Below are positions 668 to 42,764 of a DNA stretch of 42,764 nt, in pieces. The position numbers and the translations under genes were made by a program. The stretch comes from Candidatus Curtissbacteria bacterium RIFCSPHIGHO2_12_FULL_41_17 (GTDB taxonomy: Bacteria > Patescibacteriota > Microgenomatia > Curtissbacterales > GWA2-41-24), in NCBI GenBank assembly GCA_001774945.1, contig MFBL01000008.1:9310-52073 (forward strand), written 5' to 3'. Numbering within the stretch: the stretch's first letter is position 1; every line of letters begins with the position of its first letter. The notes under the pieces were generated by a model, which did no database searches, was not told the origin of the DNA, and saw nothing but the letters and a program-made list of their open reading frames with translations.

Positions 668-1408
668 TTAAGCTGCCTTTGGAAGATAAAAGTCCGCTCT
701 AAATCTGGGATCGTAAGCCTGCCGTGAAATTCTGGTAAACGGAGTCAGTTGAATTTTGCCTTCAACTACAGCGGGCATAGTTACATCTCTCAGCCCATGA
801 AGTACTTGTTTGTTAAATTCAGCTTCTTTAAGTGCATTAGTCCAGAATGATGCGAAATCGGGGCTTTTGTACATTTCTATCAGGACTTCTCTATACCAAT
901 CATCTCTTATATCAAAAGGAGTGTCTGCTACAAAATAGGTAAGATGGTTTTGTAATTGTTCGTCCCAGCCAGGAATTTCTCTAAGTGTTCTATCGAATAA
1001 CACTTCCAACCATTGATGTCTCTTTCGCCTGATATCTGAGGCGAAGGGGAAAATGGCCCTTGCTCCTGAATTGGCATTTAATAGCATGCCTGTGAAATCT
1101 CTAAAAATTACTGGCCTATCAATGTCTGCACAAAATCCTTCTGTCTGCTGAGTCCACTCATCACGTTCTGCCTCTGTAGGAGGAATGCCTGCTAAAAAGC
1201 ATCCTTGTGCAGTATCTTTATCTGCAAGCTGGAGTACTCCAAAAAGCTGTCCAAGTTCCCTTCTGGTTGGCTTTACTTTCTCTCGCTCAATGTCGCTTAA
1301 ATGCCAAGGCTCCCAGCCTAGCATGTTGCAAACATCAGTCTGAGTTAATTTTAATTCTATTGATCTTCATTGCCACACAAGCGTTCCAACACCTATTGGT
1401 CTTTCCAC
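668..1408 (-). pseudogene. XRE-HTH + MmyB-like ligand-binding domain regulator with a premature in-frame TGA at 1367-1369
   Basis: From GTG 1408 the frame reads MERPIGVGTLVWQ*RSIELKLTQTDVCNMLGWEPWHLSDIEREKVKPTRRELGQL (XRE HTH). It continues into PVIFRD...LLNANSGARAIF...SPDFASFW (MmyB-like). TATAAT lies 7 nt upstream of the GTG. Confidence 0.7.
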
Positions 1409-1523
1409 AAGTGCGATTATACAAATTATAGACTCGATAAGTAAAATTCGATCGAGTTTCTAATTGTTAAATTGTTTGGTAAACTCTCATCATATCGGTG
1501 CACAGGTTGTTCCATTCCAAGGA

Positions 1524-1549
1524 CTGTGCCCCACCGAGTCAGACTCGGC
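1524..1549 (+). repeat. Right copy of the tRNA-3'-end direct repeat
   Basis: CTGTGCCCCACCGAGTCAGACTCGGC; see 7-33. Confidence 0.8.
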
Positions 1550-1551
1550 AA

Positions 1552-1577
1552 GTCGCGTTCGACGCGACACTTTTTTT
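1552..1577 (+). terminator. Intrinsic terminator-like hairpin
   Basis: GTCGCGT-TCG-ACGCGAC perfect stem followed by AC and T7. Confidence 0.6.
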
Positions 1578-2534
1578 ATGAATTGGGTAGATTTAATAAT
1601 AATATTAATTGCGATTATTTTTGCGCTTGAAGGACAAAGACGAGGTTTTTTTGTCCAGATAGCCGATCTTGTTGGATTTTTATTTTCTCTGATACTTGCT
1701 TTAACTTTTTATCCTCAAGCCGCCCAATTTATAATTAAAATCTTCAATTTGCCAAAAATTGCCGCCAATCCTGTCGGATTTTTACTGGTTTGGCTAATCA
1801 CCGAAACATTATTTTTCTCGGTTTTCGGGGGGTTAATTTCAAAATTTATAGCAAGGTTTTCAACATCAAAAGTCAACCGGCTGTTTGGGTTTATTCCGTC
1901 AACCGTAAATACTCTTCTTTTTATGTCATTTGTGCTTCTATTCGCAGTTTCTTTGCCGATAAGGCCGGATATAAAAAAGGATGTTTTTGATTCAAAAATC
2001 GGATCATTCTTAGTCGATAAGGCAACAGTTTTAGAGCGGCCCTTTAACAGTATCTTCGGTCCGATTGCCAAACAGGGCCTGACTTTCTTAACAATCAGAC
2101 CGGATGAAAAAGGTTCGATTCCTCTTGAATTTACCCAGAAAGAGTTAACAGTCGATTATCAAAGCGAAAAAGCGATGCTTGAGTTTGTTAATAAAGAAAG
2201 GGTAAACAGGGGAATTGCCCCTTTAGTTTGGAACGAAGGACTGGCTAACGTCGGACGCGCTCACTCTAAGGACATGTTTGAAAGAGGCTACTTTTCTCAT
2301 TATTCACCCGAAGGGAGGGATGTAGGGGACAGATTAGAGGAAGCGGGGATTGATTATTCATTCGCCGGCGAAAATTTAGCGCTGGCCCCAAATGTTGACA
2401 GAGCCAATACCGGGCTTATCAACAGCGAGGGTCATAGACGCAACATTCTGGATCCTGCTTTCAAAAAGCTCGGCATTGGCGCCATCGACGGAGGAATCTA
2501 CGGCAAAATGTTTACGCAGGTCTTTACAAATTAA
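1578..2534 (+). CDS. CvpA (colicin V production) family membrane domain fused to a CAP/SCP domain
   Basis: N-terminal MNWVDLIIILI...GQRRGFF with TM helices. C-terminal VNKER...RAHSKDMFERGYFSH...GENLA...SEGHRRNIL is the CAP signature. Start placed at ATG 1578. Confidence 0.88.
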   Translation: MNWVDLIIILIAIIFALEGQRRGFFVQIADLVGFLFSLILALTFYPQAAQFIIKIFNLPKIAANPVGFLLVWLITETLFFSVFGGLISKFIARFSTSKVNRLFGFIPSTVNTLLFMSFVLLFAVSLPIRPDIKKDVFDSKIGSFLVDKATVLERPFNSIFGPIAKQGLTFLTIRPDEKGSIPLEFTQKELTVDYQSEKAMLEFVNKERVNRGIAPLVWNEGLANVGRAHSKDMFERGYFSHYSPEGRDVGDRLEEAGIDYSFAGENLALAPNVDRANTGLINSEGHRRNILDPAFKKLGIGAIDGGIYGKMFTQVFTN

Positions 2535-29159: not shown

Positions 29160-29405
29160 TAAACTTCCGAGGACTAAGAGTCCTCGGCCTTGCCTGCCGG
29201 CAGGCAGGTTTTGTTCTCTAAGTTTTAGGCCCGCAGTCCTGAGTCCTGAGCCAGTCGAAGGATCGAAGGACGAGGACCGCATGGCACTGTATACAAGAGC
29301 GTAGAAAACCACACCTTACGTGTTTTTTTGGTATACTCTCGGAAGTATGTAATCGCATTTTTGCATTCATCCCCACTTTAAAAAAGTGGGGTTTTCTGCA
29401 AGCGA
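29160..29405 (+). mobile_element. Gene-less IS200/IS605-like miniature element carrying nested palindromes
   Basis: Left hairpin CCGAGGACT-AAG-AGTCCTCGG followed by CCTTG. Right hairpin TTCAT-CCCCACTTT-AAA-AAAGTGGGG-TTTTCTGC. Both resemble IS200/IS605 end structures from recalled consensus; no transposase ORF lies between them. Confidence 0.45.
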
Positions 29406-41255: not shown

Positions 41256-41331
41256 AGGAGAGGGGACTTGTCAACCAGAGCATGATCCGCCTTTGGTGGA
41301 AACCTCCGACCTCACCATCTCAAAAAGCGCT
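41256..41331 (-). repeat. Decayed copy of the tRNA-Pro 3' half with a 30-nt insert in the T-loop
   Basis: 41256-41270 matches 42061-42075 at 12/15 positions and 41301-41313 matches 42076-42088 at 13/13. They are separated by TCAACCAGAGCATGATCCGCCTTTGGTGGA. Confidence 0.75.
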
Positions 41332-41343
41332 TTTATAAATGCC

Positions 41344-41724
41344 TTATGTAGGAGTATTTAAAATTTTTATGTCATTCATAGGAAAATGTTTTATGTTGAG
41401 TGAAATGAGAGTAAGATTGTTCACATTTGCTGTTGCGGCTATTAAACAGTCTGTCAAGCTTAAATTTTTTAGTTGTTTTACGTATTGCTGCCAATACAAA
41501 CCCGCTTGTTTTGCAATAGATTTTGTCACATCCCACGTTAGAAATTCCTCCAAGACGCTTTCAGTTTTTAGCAATTCAGAAGGGTAAATATTTTTGTATA
41601 TTTCAGCTATAGTTACAGTGGATATCGAAAACGCGTTTTTGTCTTTTAAACTTTGTAAAAATTCTTCGTACTTTTCATTTCCTCGCAGAACCCAAATAAG
41701 AATATCTGTATCGATTAAATACAC
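41344..41724 (-). CDS. vapC: VapC-type PIN toxin
   Basis: YLIDTDILI, TIAEI, SLTDCLIAATA and LNIKHF motifs. Confidence 0.9.
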   Translation of the reverse strand: MYLIDTDILIWVLRGNEKYEEFLQSLKDKNAFSISTVTIAEIYKNIYPSELLKTESVLEEFLTWDVTKSIAKQAGLYWQQYVKQLKNLSLTDCLIAATANVNNLTLISLNIKHFPMNDIKILNTPT

Positions 41725-41726
41725 GC

Positions 41727-42005
41727 TTAAAAGCTACGGTCTGCGGCTTTTCTACCTCTTTGCACCCAATTGATTACATCTTTTTTTGTTCGCCATTCAG
41801 GATGATTTCTGGCCGCAAAAATACCGCTGGCCGCTTTAAGCGCTTTCCCAAATGCGTCGGGGCTAAACTTTTTCTTTACTTCAAGTTGAACTATTTGCTG
41901 GCCCTTTTTTTCATCTTTTAAAATAACCGTATGGCCTTTTTTAGCTTTCTCGATATAATCTGCAATATGCTGCCGAAATTGGCTTACAGATACAATAATA
42001 GTCAT
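41727..42005 (-). CDS. Phd/YefM family antitoxin
   Basis: IVSVSQFRQHIADYIEKAKKGHTVIL motif; 2 nt upstream of vapC. Confidence 0.85.
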   Translation of the reverse strand: MTIIVSVSQFRQHIADYIEKAKKGHTVILKDEKKGQQIVQLEVKKKFSPDAFGKALKAASGIFAARNHPEWRTKKDVINWVQRGRKAADRSF

Positions 42006-42011
42006 GTTTTA

Positions 42012-42040
42012 ATATTAGTACATTATGTACATATTGTCAA
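42012..42040 (-). promoter_or_regulatory. TA promoter with a palindromic operator
   Basis: TTGACA-N17-TAATAT with the ATG 6 nt downstream; GTACAT-T-ATGTAC at 42018-42030 in the spacer. Confidence 0.7.
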
Positions 42041-42057
42041 CCAGCTTTTTTAAGCTG

Positions 42058-42131
42058 TCGGGGAGAGAGGACTCGAACCTCCGACCTCTGCGTCCCAAAC
42101 GCAGCGCTCTAGCCAACTGAGCTACTCCCCG
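42058..42131 (-). tRNA. tRNA-Pro(TGG)
   Basis: CGGGGAGTAGCTCAGTTGGCTAGAGCG CTGCG-TTTGGGA-CGCAG AGGTC GGAGGTTCGAGTCCTCT CTCCCCG A. Confidence 0.96.
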
Positions 42132-42372
42132 TTAGTAATATTTTCTTTAAAGTATTAAAACCCTTATGAGTTTTAAAAAACTTCTCTCGTAACCTTGCAT
42201 CGATCTCCGCAGTAAATTCCTCTTTATAAATCAGCACAAACGGTCTTCTGCTCTTAGTCGATGGTACTTTTCCCGAATTATGTTCACTTATTCTTCTTTT
42301 TAAATTGTTAGTTGACCCGATATATCTTTTTTTATCTTTCTCGCTTTTCAAGATATAAAGGTACCATTTCAT
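42109..42372 (-). CDS. Small GIY-YIG nuclease family protein
   Basis: WYLYIL...YIGSTNNLKRRISEHNSG..STK.RRP..LIYKE...A..REK motifs. ATG at 42372; the stop codon lies inside tRNA-Pro. Confidence 0.9.
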   Translation of the reverse strand: MKWYLYILKSEKDKKRYIGSTNNLKRRISEHNSGKVPSTKSRRPFVLIYKEEFTAEIDARLREKFFKTHKGFNTLKKILLTGSSSVG

Positions 42373-42374
42373 TT

Positions 42375-42432
42375 GCGCTCTAGCCCCTGGGCCTTTGGCC
42401 CGAAGGGCCAGGGCCAACTGAGCTACTCCCCG
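42375..42432 (-). repeat. Copy of tRNA-Pro nt 1-28 with a 30-nt palindromic insert in the D-loop
   Basis: CGGGGAGTAGCTCAGTT-GGC-[CCTGGCCCTTCGGGCCAAAGGCCCAGG]-GGC-TAGAGCGC; the tRNA-derived parts are identical to tRNA-Pro. Confidence 0.9.
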
Positions 42433-42435
42433 CTA

Positions 42436-42693
42436 TTATATTCTCCAATAATTACGTCCGTGTCTTTGAGCCGCTGCTCTTATGCCGCTTTCTTTAATCC
42501 GAGTAATTACTTCGTCAGCAATCCTCTCCGAATCCGGAACTGGGGGTCTATCTATTCCACTATTAAATCCACCTGCCTTAGGGCAGCCTCCACAACCATT
42601 CTCTCTGATCGAATCAAAGAGTACCGGACACGTTGTCCTGCCTCCAGACGCTTTTACTAAATCTGGATTAATGCACAATCTGTCTTTGCCCAT
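42436..42693 (-). CDS. Small hypothetical Cys-containing protein
   Basis: 85-aa ORF between two tRNAs with C-x14-C-x11-CGGC; no SD seen. Confidence 0.4.
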   Translation of the reverse strand: MGKDRLCINPDLVKASGGRTTCPVLFDSIRENGCGGCPKAGGFNSGIDRPPVPDSERIADEVITRIKESGIRAAAQRHGRNYWRI

Positions 42694-42736: not shown

Positions 42737-42764
42737 TGGGCGGGGTGGGACTCGAACCCACACG
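42737..42764 (-). tRNA. 3' end of a tRNA truncated by the window edge, probably tRNA-Leu
   Basis: CGT-GTGGG-TTCGAGT-CCCAC-CCCGCCC-A; the anticodon is outside the window. Confidence 0.75.

Follow-up and report, generated by a model that had tools for sequence, protein, structure and literature searches.

The tRNA-Pro locus described here lies in the window, by which we mean the whole stretch of 42,764 nt of DNA that was analysed. With moderate confidence we interpret it as one of a widespread set of selfish cassettes of about 0.3 kb that reside in tRNA genes, each combining a single-domain GIY-YIG nuclease with a hairpin of its own. The architecture of the locus, its recurrence across phyla and tRNAs, its presence or absence in relatives, the horizontally distributed nuclease clade and the co-inheritance and covariation of hairpin and nuclease are set out below. 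In the model that we favour, the cassette would consist of a nuclease gene encoding about 80-90 aa (UPF0213/Slx1/Ssn-like) and a short GC-rich hairpin that is specific to the nuclease clade. The hairpin would occupy a loop of a partial tRNA copy, with the nuclease gene 11-19 nt further on, and the host would retain its tRNA because a complete copy of the same tRNA, on the same strand, abuts the nuclease gene.

Along the minus strand, tRNA-Pro nt 1-20 are followed by a 27 nt hairpin, tRNA nt 18-28, AA, the GIY-YIG ORF and an intact tRNA-Pro(UGG) (Table 1). This confirms the layout reported in a preliminary description of the locus, namely a plugged tRNA-Pro copy, AA, a GIY-YIG ORF and the intact tRNA. 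Positions 42432..42413 read CGGGGAGTAGCTCAGTTGGC, which is tRNA-Pro nt 1-20 and identical to the intact tRNA. The insert at 42412..42386 reads CCTGGCCCTTCGGGCCAAAGGCCCAGG (27 nt) and is followed at 42385..42375 by GGCTAGAGCGC. As this second fragment is exactly tRNA nt 18-28, the GGC of nt 18-20 is present on both sides of the insert. The insert length of 30 nt given previously is equivalent, but is better expressed as 27 nt plus a 3 nt duplication. The AA separates the copy of tRNA nt 28 from the nuclease ATG at 42372. At the other end of the gene, tRNA nt 2-23 encode the final six residues and the stop, and the TAG itself (42111..42109) is nt 21-23 of the intact tRNA-Pro(tgg). No other tRNA with this anticodon was found in the assembly, which is 87% complete and yielded 33 tRNAs. 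The whole nuclease and hairpin unit is about 300 bases (about 0.3 kb) long, holds only the one ORF and resides in a very small genome.

Table 1. Features of the tRNA-Pro locus in the window
Feature	Position	Strand	Remarks
tRNA-Leu(taa) 3' end	42737..42764	-	T-arm and acceptor 3' strand; clipped by the end of the window and contig
Four-Cys small ORF, 85 aa	42436..42693	-	Occupies the tRNA-Leu/tRNA-Pro spacer
tRNA-Pro nt 1-20 copy	42413..42432	-	Exact; acceptor 5' strand, D-stem 5' strand and part of D-loop
Three-arm hairpin, 27 nt	42386..42412	-	In D-loop; 3 nt GGC target duplication
tRNA-Pro nt 18-28 copy	42375..42385	-	Exact; remaining D-loop, D-stem 3' strand and nt 26-28; abuts ORF junction
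GIY-YIG nuclease gene, 87 aa	42109..42372	-	Pfam PF01541
Intact tRNA-Pro(tgg)	42057..42131	-	ARAGORN; Rfam tRNA 68.8 bits
Phd/YefM-VapC(PIN) toxin-antitoxin cassette	41344..42040	-	Pfam PF02604 and PF01850; own promoter-like site
Decayed tRNA-Pro 3' fragment, about nt 24-76	41256..41332	-	T-loop broken by hairpin pair

There are two independent metagenome assemblies with an identical structure, one (L065) at 100% identity over 1221 bp and the other (L066) at 96%, and the structure is also retained in the diverged orthologues L067-L070. Since independent assemblies and diverged orthologues agree, the layout is neither chance nor mis-assembly, and the concern about mis-assembly raised in the preliminary description is not borne out. 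There is no integrase in the 5 kb downstream of the cassette; the neighbouring genes are Phd, VapC, an unknown ORF, GreA and Alr, with no tyrosine or serine recombinase among them. The idea of a minimal mobile unit that sits at a tRNA gene, has no integrase and leaves the tRNA intact holds.

An Rfam scan of the leader matched tRNA only, with no other family and no intron family among the matches. We considered a tRNA intron (group I or bulge-helix-bulge) and discarded it because an uninterrupted tRNA-Pro follows the ORF and there is no Rfam intron match. No sigma-70-like promoter was found between the tRNA fragment and the nuclease ATG, nor was a promoter consensus found upstream of the tRNA-Pro fragment. 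It is plausible that a promoter further upstream is used and that the tRNA fragment serves as the leader, which as RNA has a predicted fold of -37.2 kcal/mol (z -2.86).

The 87 aa protein matches the Pfam GIY-YIG domain PF01541 over residues 2-73 (E 8.6e-18; 64.9 bits against a cut-off of 22.6), and Y6, Y17, R27, H31 and E63 are invariant in an alignment of nine cassette proteins. With a domain match above the curated cut-off and the catalytic residues (two Tyr, Arg, His and Glu) in place, it is a member of the GIY-YIG superfamily. Only 14 residues follow the domain, six of them encoded by the tRNA, and there is no C-terminal DNA-binding domain. The closest solved structures are the UPF0213 proteins 1ywl (E 1.7e-5) and 1zg2, followed by SLX1. 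There is no specific NCBIfam family for the nuclease, and its match to TIGR01453 (22.8 bits) lies below the cut-off of 56. No family relative has the nuclease at more than 56% identity; MAGs labelled Doudnabacteria and Calditrichia have it at 64%.

The hairpin is not the simple palindrome that had been described but has three arms (GGCCC-TTC-GGGCC-AAA-GGCCC, framed by CCT...AGG). A seeded Hamming scan counted a single copy in the genome of the window. The same three-arm hairpin accompanies the same nuclease clade in L043, L065-L072, L074, L076 and L078. It is found with this clade at tRNA-Pro genes of the tgg, cgg and ggg types, where it occupies either the D-loop or the anticodon loop and may precede or follow the ORF; in most lineages it has target duplications of 2-3 nt. 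The arms covary between loci, being GGCCC, GCGGC or GCCAC in all three together. Hairpin type follows the nuclease phylogeny: on the protein tree hairpin class changes three times, the minimum possible, against a mean of 17.6 for shuffled classes (0 of 200 as low), a result that is inflated by near-copies among the loci. Because hairpin type tracks the nuclease phylogeny and the three arms covary, the hairpin is not an incidental palindrome. Nor is it an accident in a decaying tRNA copy; it belongs to the cassette as a conserved component and is specific to the nuclease clade. We propose the 27 nt hairpin as the putative cognate site of the nuclease. In a comparison across loci there were no conserved non-coding element ends besides the hairpin. 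Fold-back repair of the P-nucleotide type was considered as a source of the palindromes and dropped, as they are not complementary to their flanks. The genome also has a 20 nt palindrome, CCTGCCTGCCGGCAGGCAGG, which is a dispersed repeat with about 13 copies, mostly away from GIY-YIG genes.

Relatives have both empty and filled versions of the tRNA-Pro site (layouts in the G-numbered genomes were read by eye from the sequence). G013 has the empty site that the preliminary description proposed to look for: there a Cys-rich ORF is followed directly by tRNA-Pro, and this tRNA-Pro is 99% identical to that of the window. The site is filled in the window, in L065-L070 and in G022, G017 and G016, the last three of which have the same layout with a nuclease of another GIY-YIG clade (36-38% identity) and four hairpins in the D-loop. 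L043, L066-L070, G022 and G016 likewise have the junction at nt 27/28, with the ATG 0-6 nt beyond it. Three further loci speak for the replacement of resident tRNAs. In L072 the remnant derives from tRNA-Pro(ggg) and is different from the intact copy, the 3' remnant in G022 belongs to another tRNA-Pro type, and G015 has a hairpin-plugged remnant beside a different tRNA-Pro, without a nuclease gene. There are eight GIY-YIG copies in the genome of the window. A second cassette is located at tRNA-Asn, with a 20 nt palindrome in the D-loop; four of the eight copies do not adjoin a tRNA, and an Rfam scan around these found none. We dropped the suggestion that the duplication at tRNA-Pro reaches into the tRNA leader, as the match (88% over 34 nt) falls mostly in the tRNA part and is too weak.

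Using the single nuclease protein of the window as query, we gathered 91 homologous loci from many phyla. A same-strand tRNA adjoins 53 of these, lying directly downstream in 27, directly upstream in 25 and on both sides in one. Many of these tRNA-adjoining loci contain hairpin-plugged tRNA fragments, and the predicted arrangement, a small GIY-YIG gene between a fragment and an intact copy of one and the same tRNA, recurs very often. A 5'-end duplication, which had been taken as atypical, is not so in this family, where the 5' and 3' types occur in similar numbers (27 versus 25 of 91). Copies of GIY-YIG genes number 2-15 per genome of about 1 Mb and their distribution is patchy and non-vertical. 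Horizontal distribution of the nuclease clade is indicated by the identities given above (at most 56% in family relatives, 64% in the MAGs labelled Doudnabacteria and Calditrichia) and by L065, which is 100% identical to the window from nt 1 of the fragment. In the literature we found no paper that describes a tRNA-splitting nuclease-hairpin cassette.

The cassette has probably spread by break-induced recombination with the tRNA sequence as homology, and we infer that a partial or whole replacement copy of the tRNA keeps the host alive. The nuclease would bind its own hairpin in single-stranded DNA and, like SsnA, cut from a few to about 15 nt away; cutting at such an offset would give rise to the short target duplications and to the junction between ORF and fragment. 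The break would be repaired by recombination for which the conserved tRNA sequence and the hairpin supply the homology, and repair would copy the ORF together with a replacement tRNA piece, or the whole tRNA, into a naive tRNA gene. Mitochondrial mobile endonuclease ORFs, which bring a replacement gene end, follow the same logic. The hairpin plug would inactivate the left-over fragment both as a target and as a recombination partner, and the nuclease gene would have no promoter of its own and be transcribed together with the tRNA. As a counterpoint, the intact tRNA shares nt 1-28 with the plugged copy and with the empty-site allele, so a nuclease aimed at the bare D-loop would also cut the tRNA of its own host. 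Furthermore, each fragment agrees with the tRNA at its own site even where the tRNA-Pro isoacceptors differ (L043 and L044). This is not explained by simple homologous homing, and a pure Campbell-type or pure homing origin was dropped for this reason; the agreement calls either for a duplication on the spot whenever the cassette inserts anew or for gene conversion afterwards.

More tentatively, the locus could belong to an unrecognised form of minimal autonomous mobile DNA of about 300 bp, made up of an Ssn-like nuclease specific for single-stranded DNA and its own 27-30 nt hairpin, which alone it would recognise. Its landing sites would be tRNA genes, which are universally conserved, form hairpins and are heavily transcribed. 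A tRNA loop would be opened, the hairpin installed with a 2-3 nt duplication and a replacement piece of the tRNA copied along with it, and the host would then depend on the tRNA copy that arrived with the element. Inserts of the 'tRNA inside tRNA' kind and the dispersed palindromes without a gene would be its non-autonomous relatives.

The nuclease might instead be a free-standing homing endonuclease of the SegB type, which cuts double-stranded tRNA-Pro and spreads by ordinary homing, with the hairpin as a passive disruption of its site. Its gene adjoins tRNA genes, as T4 segB does, presence/absence polymorphism exists, and target duplications of 2-3 nt suit the staggered cuts of GIY-YIG enzymes. 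We nevertheless think this unlikely, since a protein of 87 aa with its Pfam match at residues 2-73 is without a DNA-binding domain like that of Seg proteins or I-TevI, and the adjacent intact tRNA would stay a target. A passive scar, moreover, would lack sequence conservation, covariation of three arms and agreement with the nuclease tree. Another alternative is a coincidental association, in which small palindromic mini-elements insert themselves into hairpin loops of any dispensable DNA, tRNA pseudo-fragments included, and the GIY-YIG gene is an ordinary host gene of tRNA operons. The dispersal of CCTGCCTGCCGGCAGGCAGG, in about 13 copies mostly away from GIY-YIG genes, is consistent with such an association, as are the hairpin pairs nested in hairpins (C14:3337) or beside Phd/VapC cargo and the four of eight GIY-YIG copies without an adjoining tRNA. 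We find it improbable all the same: the genome has only one copy of the three-arm hairpin, which always accompanies the same nuclease clade, 2-15 patchily and non-vertically distributed copies in a genome of about 1 Mb do not suggest an ordinary host gene, and the ORF is itself flanked by partial tRNA duplications.

The preliminary description had proposed that the element enters at the tRNA 5' end and that RNase P, by removing the stop codon, couples expression of the nuclease to tRNA maturation. Part of this is recurrent: of the 28 loci that have a tRNA immediately downstream, 16 have their stop codon within it (at nt 8-10 or about nt 19-23), and there is no promoter-like site between fragment and ORF. 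In the other 12 of the 28, however, the ORF stops 0-31 nt ahead of the tRNA, so coupling through RNase P is at most a side effect and not a design feature. One half of the family follows its tRNA instead of preceding it, and breakpoints across the family fall within tRNA loops and at nt 24-48 rather than at the 5' end; in the window, too, they are internal, the D-loop being interrupted by the hairpin at nt 20 and the junction with the ORF coming after nt 28. We therefore hold out little prospect for this model. An assembly artefact or the scar of an integrase island could be suspected from a contig that stops 300 nt upstream of the cassette, within tRNA-Leu(taa), but the same structure in independent assemblies and diverged orthologues effectively refutes it. 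With no integrase nearby and an insert of only about 300 bp, we give this explanation almost no credence.

Among known systems, T4 SegB, the Ssn nuclease/hairpin pairs and the mitochondrial mobile endonuclease ORFs (mORFs) come closest. SsnA of Neisseria meningitidis is a single-domain GIY-YIG protein of 94 aa with catalytic Y6, Y17 and E64 (Chenal et al., 2025; PMC11893778). The enzyme binds the hairpin repeat solely as single-stranded DNA and cleaves upstream of the repeat, and the authors remark that the layout of gene and hairpin resembles an insertion sequence (PMC11893778). The Ssn family (cd10448) and the cassette are alike in having a single GIY-YIG domain of about 90 aa with Tyr6, Tyr17 and Glu63/64, and in both a hairpin-forming element of 20-50 nt (the NTS/SRM repeats of Ssn) flanks the gene and co-evolves with the enzyme. 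In the cassette, by contrast, the hairpin lies inside a tRNA loop, in a partial copy beside the intact tRNA, and the Ssn paper never mentions tRNA (PMC11893778). The cassette hairpin is three-armed and single-copy whereas the Ssn hairpin is repeated hundreds of times. The SRM motif published for Ssn is not enriched in the genome, with three sites compared with 1-7 in shuffles, and none is at any GIY-YIG locus; a different 27 nt hairpin stands on one side of the nuclease gene.

SegB is roughly 220 aa in size, and Seg proteins and I-TevI possess a DNA-binding domain besides the GIY-YIG domain. T4 SegB recognises the T-psi-C motif of tRNA and leaves 2 nt overhangs (PMC2330249). Like the cassette, segB is a GIY-YIG gene among tRNA genes that is present or absent among relatives, its site holds a conserved tRNA stem-loop motif, and it is co-copied with neighbouring tRNA genes. 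Unlike the cassette nuclease, SegB is multi-domain, has a double-stranded site of 27 bp and belongs to phage genomes, without tRNA fragments or hairpin plugs. The mORFs make 'gene hybrids' in Allomyces atp6 and in Glomus atp6, atp9, cox2 and nad3 (PMC3630166). Here the likeness is an endonuclease ORF within an essential gene that brings a replacement gene end and leaves the native end as a remnant. The mORFs differ in that their hosts are protein-coding genes, the enzymes are mostly LAGLIDADG, only 3' ends are replaced and there is no hairpin, whereas the cassette uses a 75 nt tRNA in both 5' and 3' versions.

REP/RAYT and IS200/IS605 share with the cassette a small enzyme gene, short palindromes recognised as hairpins (in their case in single-stranded DNA) and gene-less miniature palindromes spread through the genome. 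Theirs are HUH enzymes with a covalent intermediate, without tRNA targeting or target regeneration, in contrast with the hydrolytic GIY-YIG enzyme of the cassette. Integrase-mediated islands also insert into tRNA genes and preserve the tRNA by a duplicated piece. They depend on an integrase of the tyrosine or serine type, extend over kilobases and in nearly every case duplicate the 3' end; the cassette has no integrase, measures about 300 bp and is equally common in the 5' and 3' types.

If the proposed explanation is true, the tRNA genes of many bacteria, notably the ultra-small Patescibacteria, would be routinely split, replaced and rebuilt by an agent that is among the smallest self-contained selfish units known. 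It would account for the many genes annotated as 'GIY-YIG nuclease family protein' beside tRNAs, and also for the tRNA pseudo-fragments and the GC-rich palindromes of AT-rich genomes. The Ssn-type hairpin-specific nucleases, only recently described, would gain a natural role as engines of mobile elements, and the family would offer a large natural collection of matched nuclease/hairpin pairs for use in single-stranded-DNA tools. It would also warn that tRNA genes can transfer horizontally piece by piece.

The upstream neighbour of tRNA-Pro was ancestrally tRNA-Leu(taa): in G018, G004, G005 and G034 a complete tRNA-Leu(taa) is followed by tRNA-Pro(tgg) after a gap of 1-84 nt. The four-Cys ORF, which has no Pfam match and has a homologue at the empty site of G013, lies outside the cassette and marks its left border. 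L065 and L066 have a strongly diverged allele of this ORF although the DNA to its right is 100% and 96% identical, respectively, to the window, and the homology between the window and L065 starts exactly at the first base of the tRNA-Pro fragment (nt 1).

On the other side of the intact tRNA, the Phd/VapC cassette, with a promoter-like site (TTGACA-17-TAATAT) at 42040..42012, is a second insertion into the same tRNA-Pro locus, of the 3' type. In G011 a homologous Phd/VapC cassette is located between the intact tRNA-Pro and an unplugged copy of nt ~24-76, and in G001 and G017 the cassette is located elsewhere in the genome. In the decayed 3' fragment of the window the T-loop is split after GGTT by two 15 nt hairpins, TCCACCAAAGGCGGA and TCATGCTCTGGTTGA (41300..41271). 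This type of hairpin pair is shared with the D-loop fragments of G022, G017 and G016 and with L057, L109 and L113. Here the pair adjoins cargo that is not a nuclease, and hairpin pairs also sit nested inside other hairpins, as at C14:3337.

The tRNA-Pro locus of the window lies on the minus strand, with a partial tRNA copy interrupted ('plugged') by a hairpin insert, a small ORF and the intact tRNA following one another (see table). The insert has GGC on either side, which amounts to a 3-nt duplication of D-loop nt 18-20, and the ORF encodes a GIY-YIG domain (PF01541, E 8.6e-18, residues 2-73). Since the intact tRNA begins upstream of the end of the ORF, the TAG of the ORF is nt 21-23 of that tRNA, which is the sole tRNA-Pro(tgg) found in the 836-kb genome (58 contigs, 87% complete). 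There is no sigma-70-like promoter between the tRNA fragment and the ORF in the window, and the ORF is likely to be co-transcribed with the tRNA. The structure is also present in L065 and L066, two metagenome contigs from other samples (100% identity to the window over 1221 bp and 96% identical, respectively), and the orthologous loci L067-L070 keep the plan at 68-75% protein identity; together these rule out an assembly artefact. The preliminary description of a minimal mobile unit that lacks an integrase and preserves its tRNA stands, as the intact tRNA-Pro is kept and no integrase was found in the available 5 kb downstream.

Features of the cassettes and related loci (window coordinates unless a locus, L, or a contig, C, is named; G, compared genome, G000 being that of the window)
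Feature	Coordinates	Strand	Remarks
tRNA-Pro nt 1-20 copy	42432..42413	minus	CGGGGAGTAGCTCAGTTGGC
27-nt insert	42412..42386	minus	CCTGGCCCTTCGGGCCAAAGGCCCAGG
tRNA-Pro nt 18-28 copy	42385..42375	minus	GGCTAGAGCGC, then AA
87-aa ORF	ATG at 42372, TAG at 42111..42109	minus	
Intact tRNA-Pro(tgg)	42131..42057	minus	Rfam 68.8 bits
Four-Cys small protein	42436-42693; L065 520-815; L029 587-850	minus (window)	tRNA-Leu/tRNA-Pro spacer; motif C..C..CGGCPK
Phd/VapC cassette	41256-42040; L027 (G011) 978-1880; L033 (G022) 1011-1840		
Decayed tRNA-Pro 3' fragment	41332..41256		beyond Phd/VapC; T-loop split by two 15-nt hairpins
Palindrome	29189-29208 (= C8:38498-38517) and ~12 other places, on C15, C17, C18, C20, C28, C31, C34, C55, C58		CCTGCCTGCCGGCAGGCAGG
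Hairpins resembling Neisseria NTS/dRS3	G000 C15:42122-42149, C31:10341-10368, C14:3325-3375		GTCATTCCCGCGAAAGCGGGAATC; match published Ssn-related motif
tRNA inside tRNA	L025 (G023) ~720-530; L026 (G016) ~725-535	minus	
tRNA inside tRNA	L135 (G276) 1425-1650; L134 (G279) 1500-1640		
Other GIY-YIG clade	L035 (G021) 350-680; L135 (G276) 1133-1425		between tRNA-Leu and tRNA-Pro, no tRNA fragment
First six nuclease codons	L071 886-915		ATG TTT TGG GTA TAT GTT; overlap mutated tRNA-Pro anticodon-arm copy

The window and its contig both terminate within tRNA-Leu(taa). In the same-family relatives G018, G004, G005 and G034 this gene is adjacent to tRNA-Pro(tgg), with a gap of 1 to 84 nt; in the window an 85-aa four-Cys ORF and the cassette separate the two. 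An empty site was sought among the relatives, as the preliminary description had suggested, and was found in G013, where the tRNA-Pro directly follows the Cys-rich ORF with neither fragment nor nuclease gene. Despite this empty site, G013 has 15 small GIY-YIG matches genome-wide (1.1 Mb). Such genes number 2-15 per family relative, none of which has a protein more than 56% identical to the window's nuclease, and 64% identity is found in MAGs labelled Doudnabacteria and Calditrichia. Between the window and L065, identity starts precisely at base 1 of the tRNA fragment; from there back to tRNA-Leu the two are unrelated and carry different Cys-rich ORF alleles. Thus tRNA sequence marks a recombination border, and the spacer may be a variable cassette slot with borders of this kind. 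The Cys-rich ORF alleles are nearly unrelated between populations although the DNA just right of the ORF is 100% identical, and the MAG contig break falls at this ORF.

The arrangement recurs. The same-family genomes G022, G017 and G016 carry a different GIY-YIG clade (36-38% identity) in identical position and layout, the fragment being CGGGGAGTAGCT, two hairpins, CAGTT, two hairpins, GGCTAGAGCGC, 2 nt and the ATG; the stop is T8-A9-G10 of the intact tRNA-Pro, and from one genome to another the four hairpins vary by paired changes that preserve the stems. There are eight GIY-YIG matches in the window's own genome. One copy precedes tRNA-Asn and is itself preceded by a 5' fragment of tRNA-Asn, with the perfect palindrome listed in the table in the D-loop of this fragment. 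Another is flanked by two tRNA-Ser genes, a third comes after a duplicate of a tRNA-Ser 3' end, and four lack a nearby tRNA.

Scanning public genomes and metagenomes retrieved 23 + 68 loci, which belong to Patescibacteria and to MAGs labelled Calditrichia, Ignavibacteria, Omnitrophica, Verrucomicrobia, Proteobacteria and Bdellovibrionales. The proposed association with tRNA genes and fragments was borne out: a same-strand tRNA lies directly downstream of the ORF in 27 (5'-type), directly upstream in 25 (3'-type) and on both sides in 1, the flanks of 11 being too short for adjacency to be judged, and K-mer comparison showed that the neighbouring tRNA is partially copied on the opposite side of the ORF. 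The 5'-type fragments typically have GC-rich inserts of ~20-42 nt in the D-, anticodon or T-loop; at 3'-type Gly, His and Trp loci the 3'-end copies are short and unplugged. Entry at the tRNA 5' end, as first proposed, does not fit these data, because the breaks are internal and the 3'-type is as common as the 5'-type. Nor is the stop codon within the tRNA, although frequent (16/28 loci with a downstream tRNA), indispensable, so the suggested coupling of nuclease expression to RNase P is a possible side effect and not a demonstrated design. At L071 the Trp codon of the nuclease occupies the position of the TGG anticodon, and an M-x-W start is common among proteins of its clade.

The insert in the window is three-armed (CCT-GGCCC-TTC-GGGCC-AAA-GGCCC-AGG) and occurs only once in the genome. 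Together with the same nuclease clade it is found at tRNA-Pro(tgg) (L065-L071, L076 and L078), tRNA-Pro(cgg) (L043) and tRNA-Pro(ggg) (L072 and L074), in the D-loop or, in L072 and L074, the anticodon loop, and upstream of the ORF except in L072, where it is downstream. It is flanked by local tRNA sequence in every case. All three arms covary (GGCCC/GGGCC/GGCCC, GCGGC/GCCGC/GCGGC or GCCAC/GTGGC/GCCAC), the target duplication is 2-3 nt in most lineages (GGC, CCG, CC, GG or TGG) and in 8/9 loci with 5'-type copies 11-19 nt separate the end of the hairpin from the ATG. When hairpins of four classes (three-arm, hairpin pair, 20-nt palindrome and tRNA-3'-end inverted repeat) were mapped onto a tree of 76 cassette proteins, they required 3 changes, the minimum possible, against a mean of 17.6 in label shuffles (0/200 as low), a test that near-copies inflate, although the three-arm clade nevertheless covers several candidate phyla and three isoacceptors. 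Judging from these sequences, the palindrome represents a functional component of the cassette and not decay. The 20-nt palindrome is not private to one cassette, with ~13 dispersed copies in the window's genome, often alongside A/T runs, and it lies in tRNA D-loops of other phyla (L052, a Paceibacteria MAG; L064, a Bdellovibrionales-labelled MAG; and L118). One of the NTS/dRS3-like hairpins, that on C14, has a ATTCCCGC/GCGGGAAT stem and a loop holding a nested pair of 15-nt hairpins.

The intact tRNA and the remnant can differ in origin, as in L072, G022 and G015. In G022 the 3' remnant is from another tRNA-Pro type, and in G015 a hairpin-plugged remnant adjoins a different tRNA-Pro and the nuclease gene is gone. 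Additionally, a 110-nt insert at anticodon loop nt 36/37 of a resident tRNA-Pro(tgg) is a complete second tRNA-Pro(tgg) within inverted repeats (CCCGCCTGACTTGAAATGA ... AGTCATTTCGGGCAGG). It is identical across two genera and 88% identical in two further families. A GIY-YIG gene lies immediately upstream in G023, G016 and G276; in G279 the outer tRNA is reduced to its anticodon stem.

The nuclease is a bare catalytic domain; among solved structures, UPF0213 proteins and SLX1 are its nearest relatives. Its best biochemical precedent is SsnA, a 94-aa single-domain GIY-YIG enzyme (catalytic Y6, Y17 and E64) that binds its own hairpin repeat only as single-stranded DNA and cleaves a few nucleotides upstream of it, and whose gene is flanked by that repeat (PMC11893778). 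Because of this precedent, we propose that the cassette nuclease would recognise its own hairpin in single-stranded DNA, a form favoured since tRNA genes are heavily transcribed and self-folding, and would cut nearby. The break would be repaired by recombination, homology being provided by the hairpin and by conserved tRNA sequence, and a copy of the ORF would thereby enter a naive gene together with a replacement tRNA piece or an entire tRNA. Mitochondrial mobile endonuclease ORFs follow the same logic and bring a replacement gene end along (PMC3630166), and SegB likewise targets a tRNA stem-loop motif (PMC2330249). We infer all of these steps, the observations being those of architecture, recurrence, gain and loss, and nuclease/hairpin coupling. 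It is a problem for the mechanism that the D-loop of the intact tRNA is the same as that of the plugged copy, that at new isoacceptors, too, the fragments agree with the local tRNA and that the published Ssn motif was not found at the locus.

The known kinds nearest to the cassette are selfish GIY-YIG endonuclease genes and Ssn nuclease/hairpin pairs. A full-text literature search turned up no account of bacterial tRNA genes in which small GIY-YIG genes are lodged alongside hairpin-plugged fragments, and 'tRNA' occurs 0 times in the Ssn paper (PMC11893778). There is a substantial chance that the cassette forms a class of its own among minimal mobile elements.

Downstream of the intact tRNA-Pro in the window, a second insertion consists of a Phd/VapC pair that has a promoter-like site of its own, followed by the decayed 3' fragment. 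G011 has this second insertion in pristine form, in which tRNA-Pro is followed by Phd/VapC and an exact copy of nt ~24-76. In its behaviour the Phd/VapC cassette resembles cargo of the same mode of insertion. It is flanked by intact tRNA-Pro and a tRNA-Pro 3' fragment beginning at ~nt 24. In G011 this fragment is identical and has no plug, in the window it is plugged by hairpins, and in G022 it is of another tRNA-Pro type; G001 and G017 have the cassette at other genomic positions. The GIY-YIG genes of the other clade, in L035 and L135, lie between the halves of an 11-bp inverted repeat (CTGCAGAGCAG ... CTGCTCTGCAG), and loss of the ORF from such a locus would leave a 22-nt palindrome.
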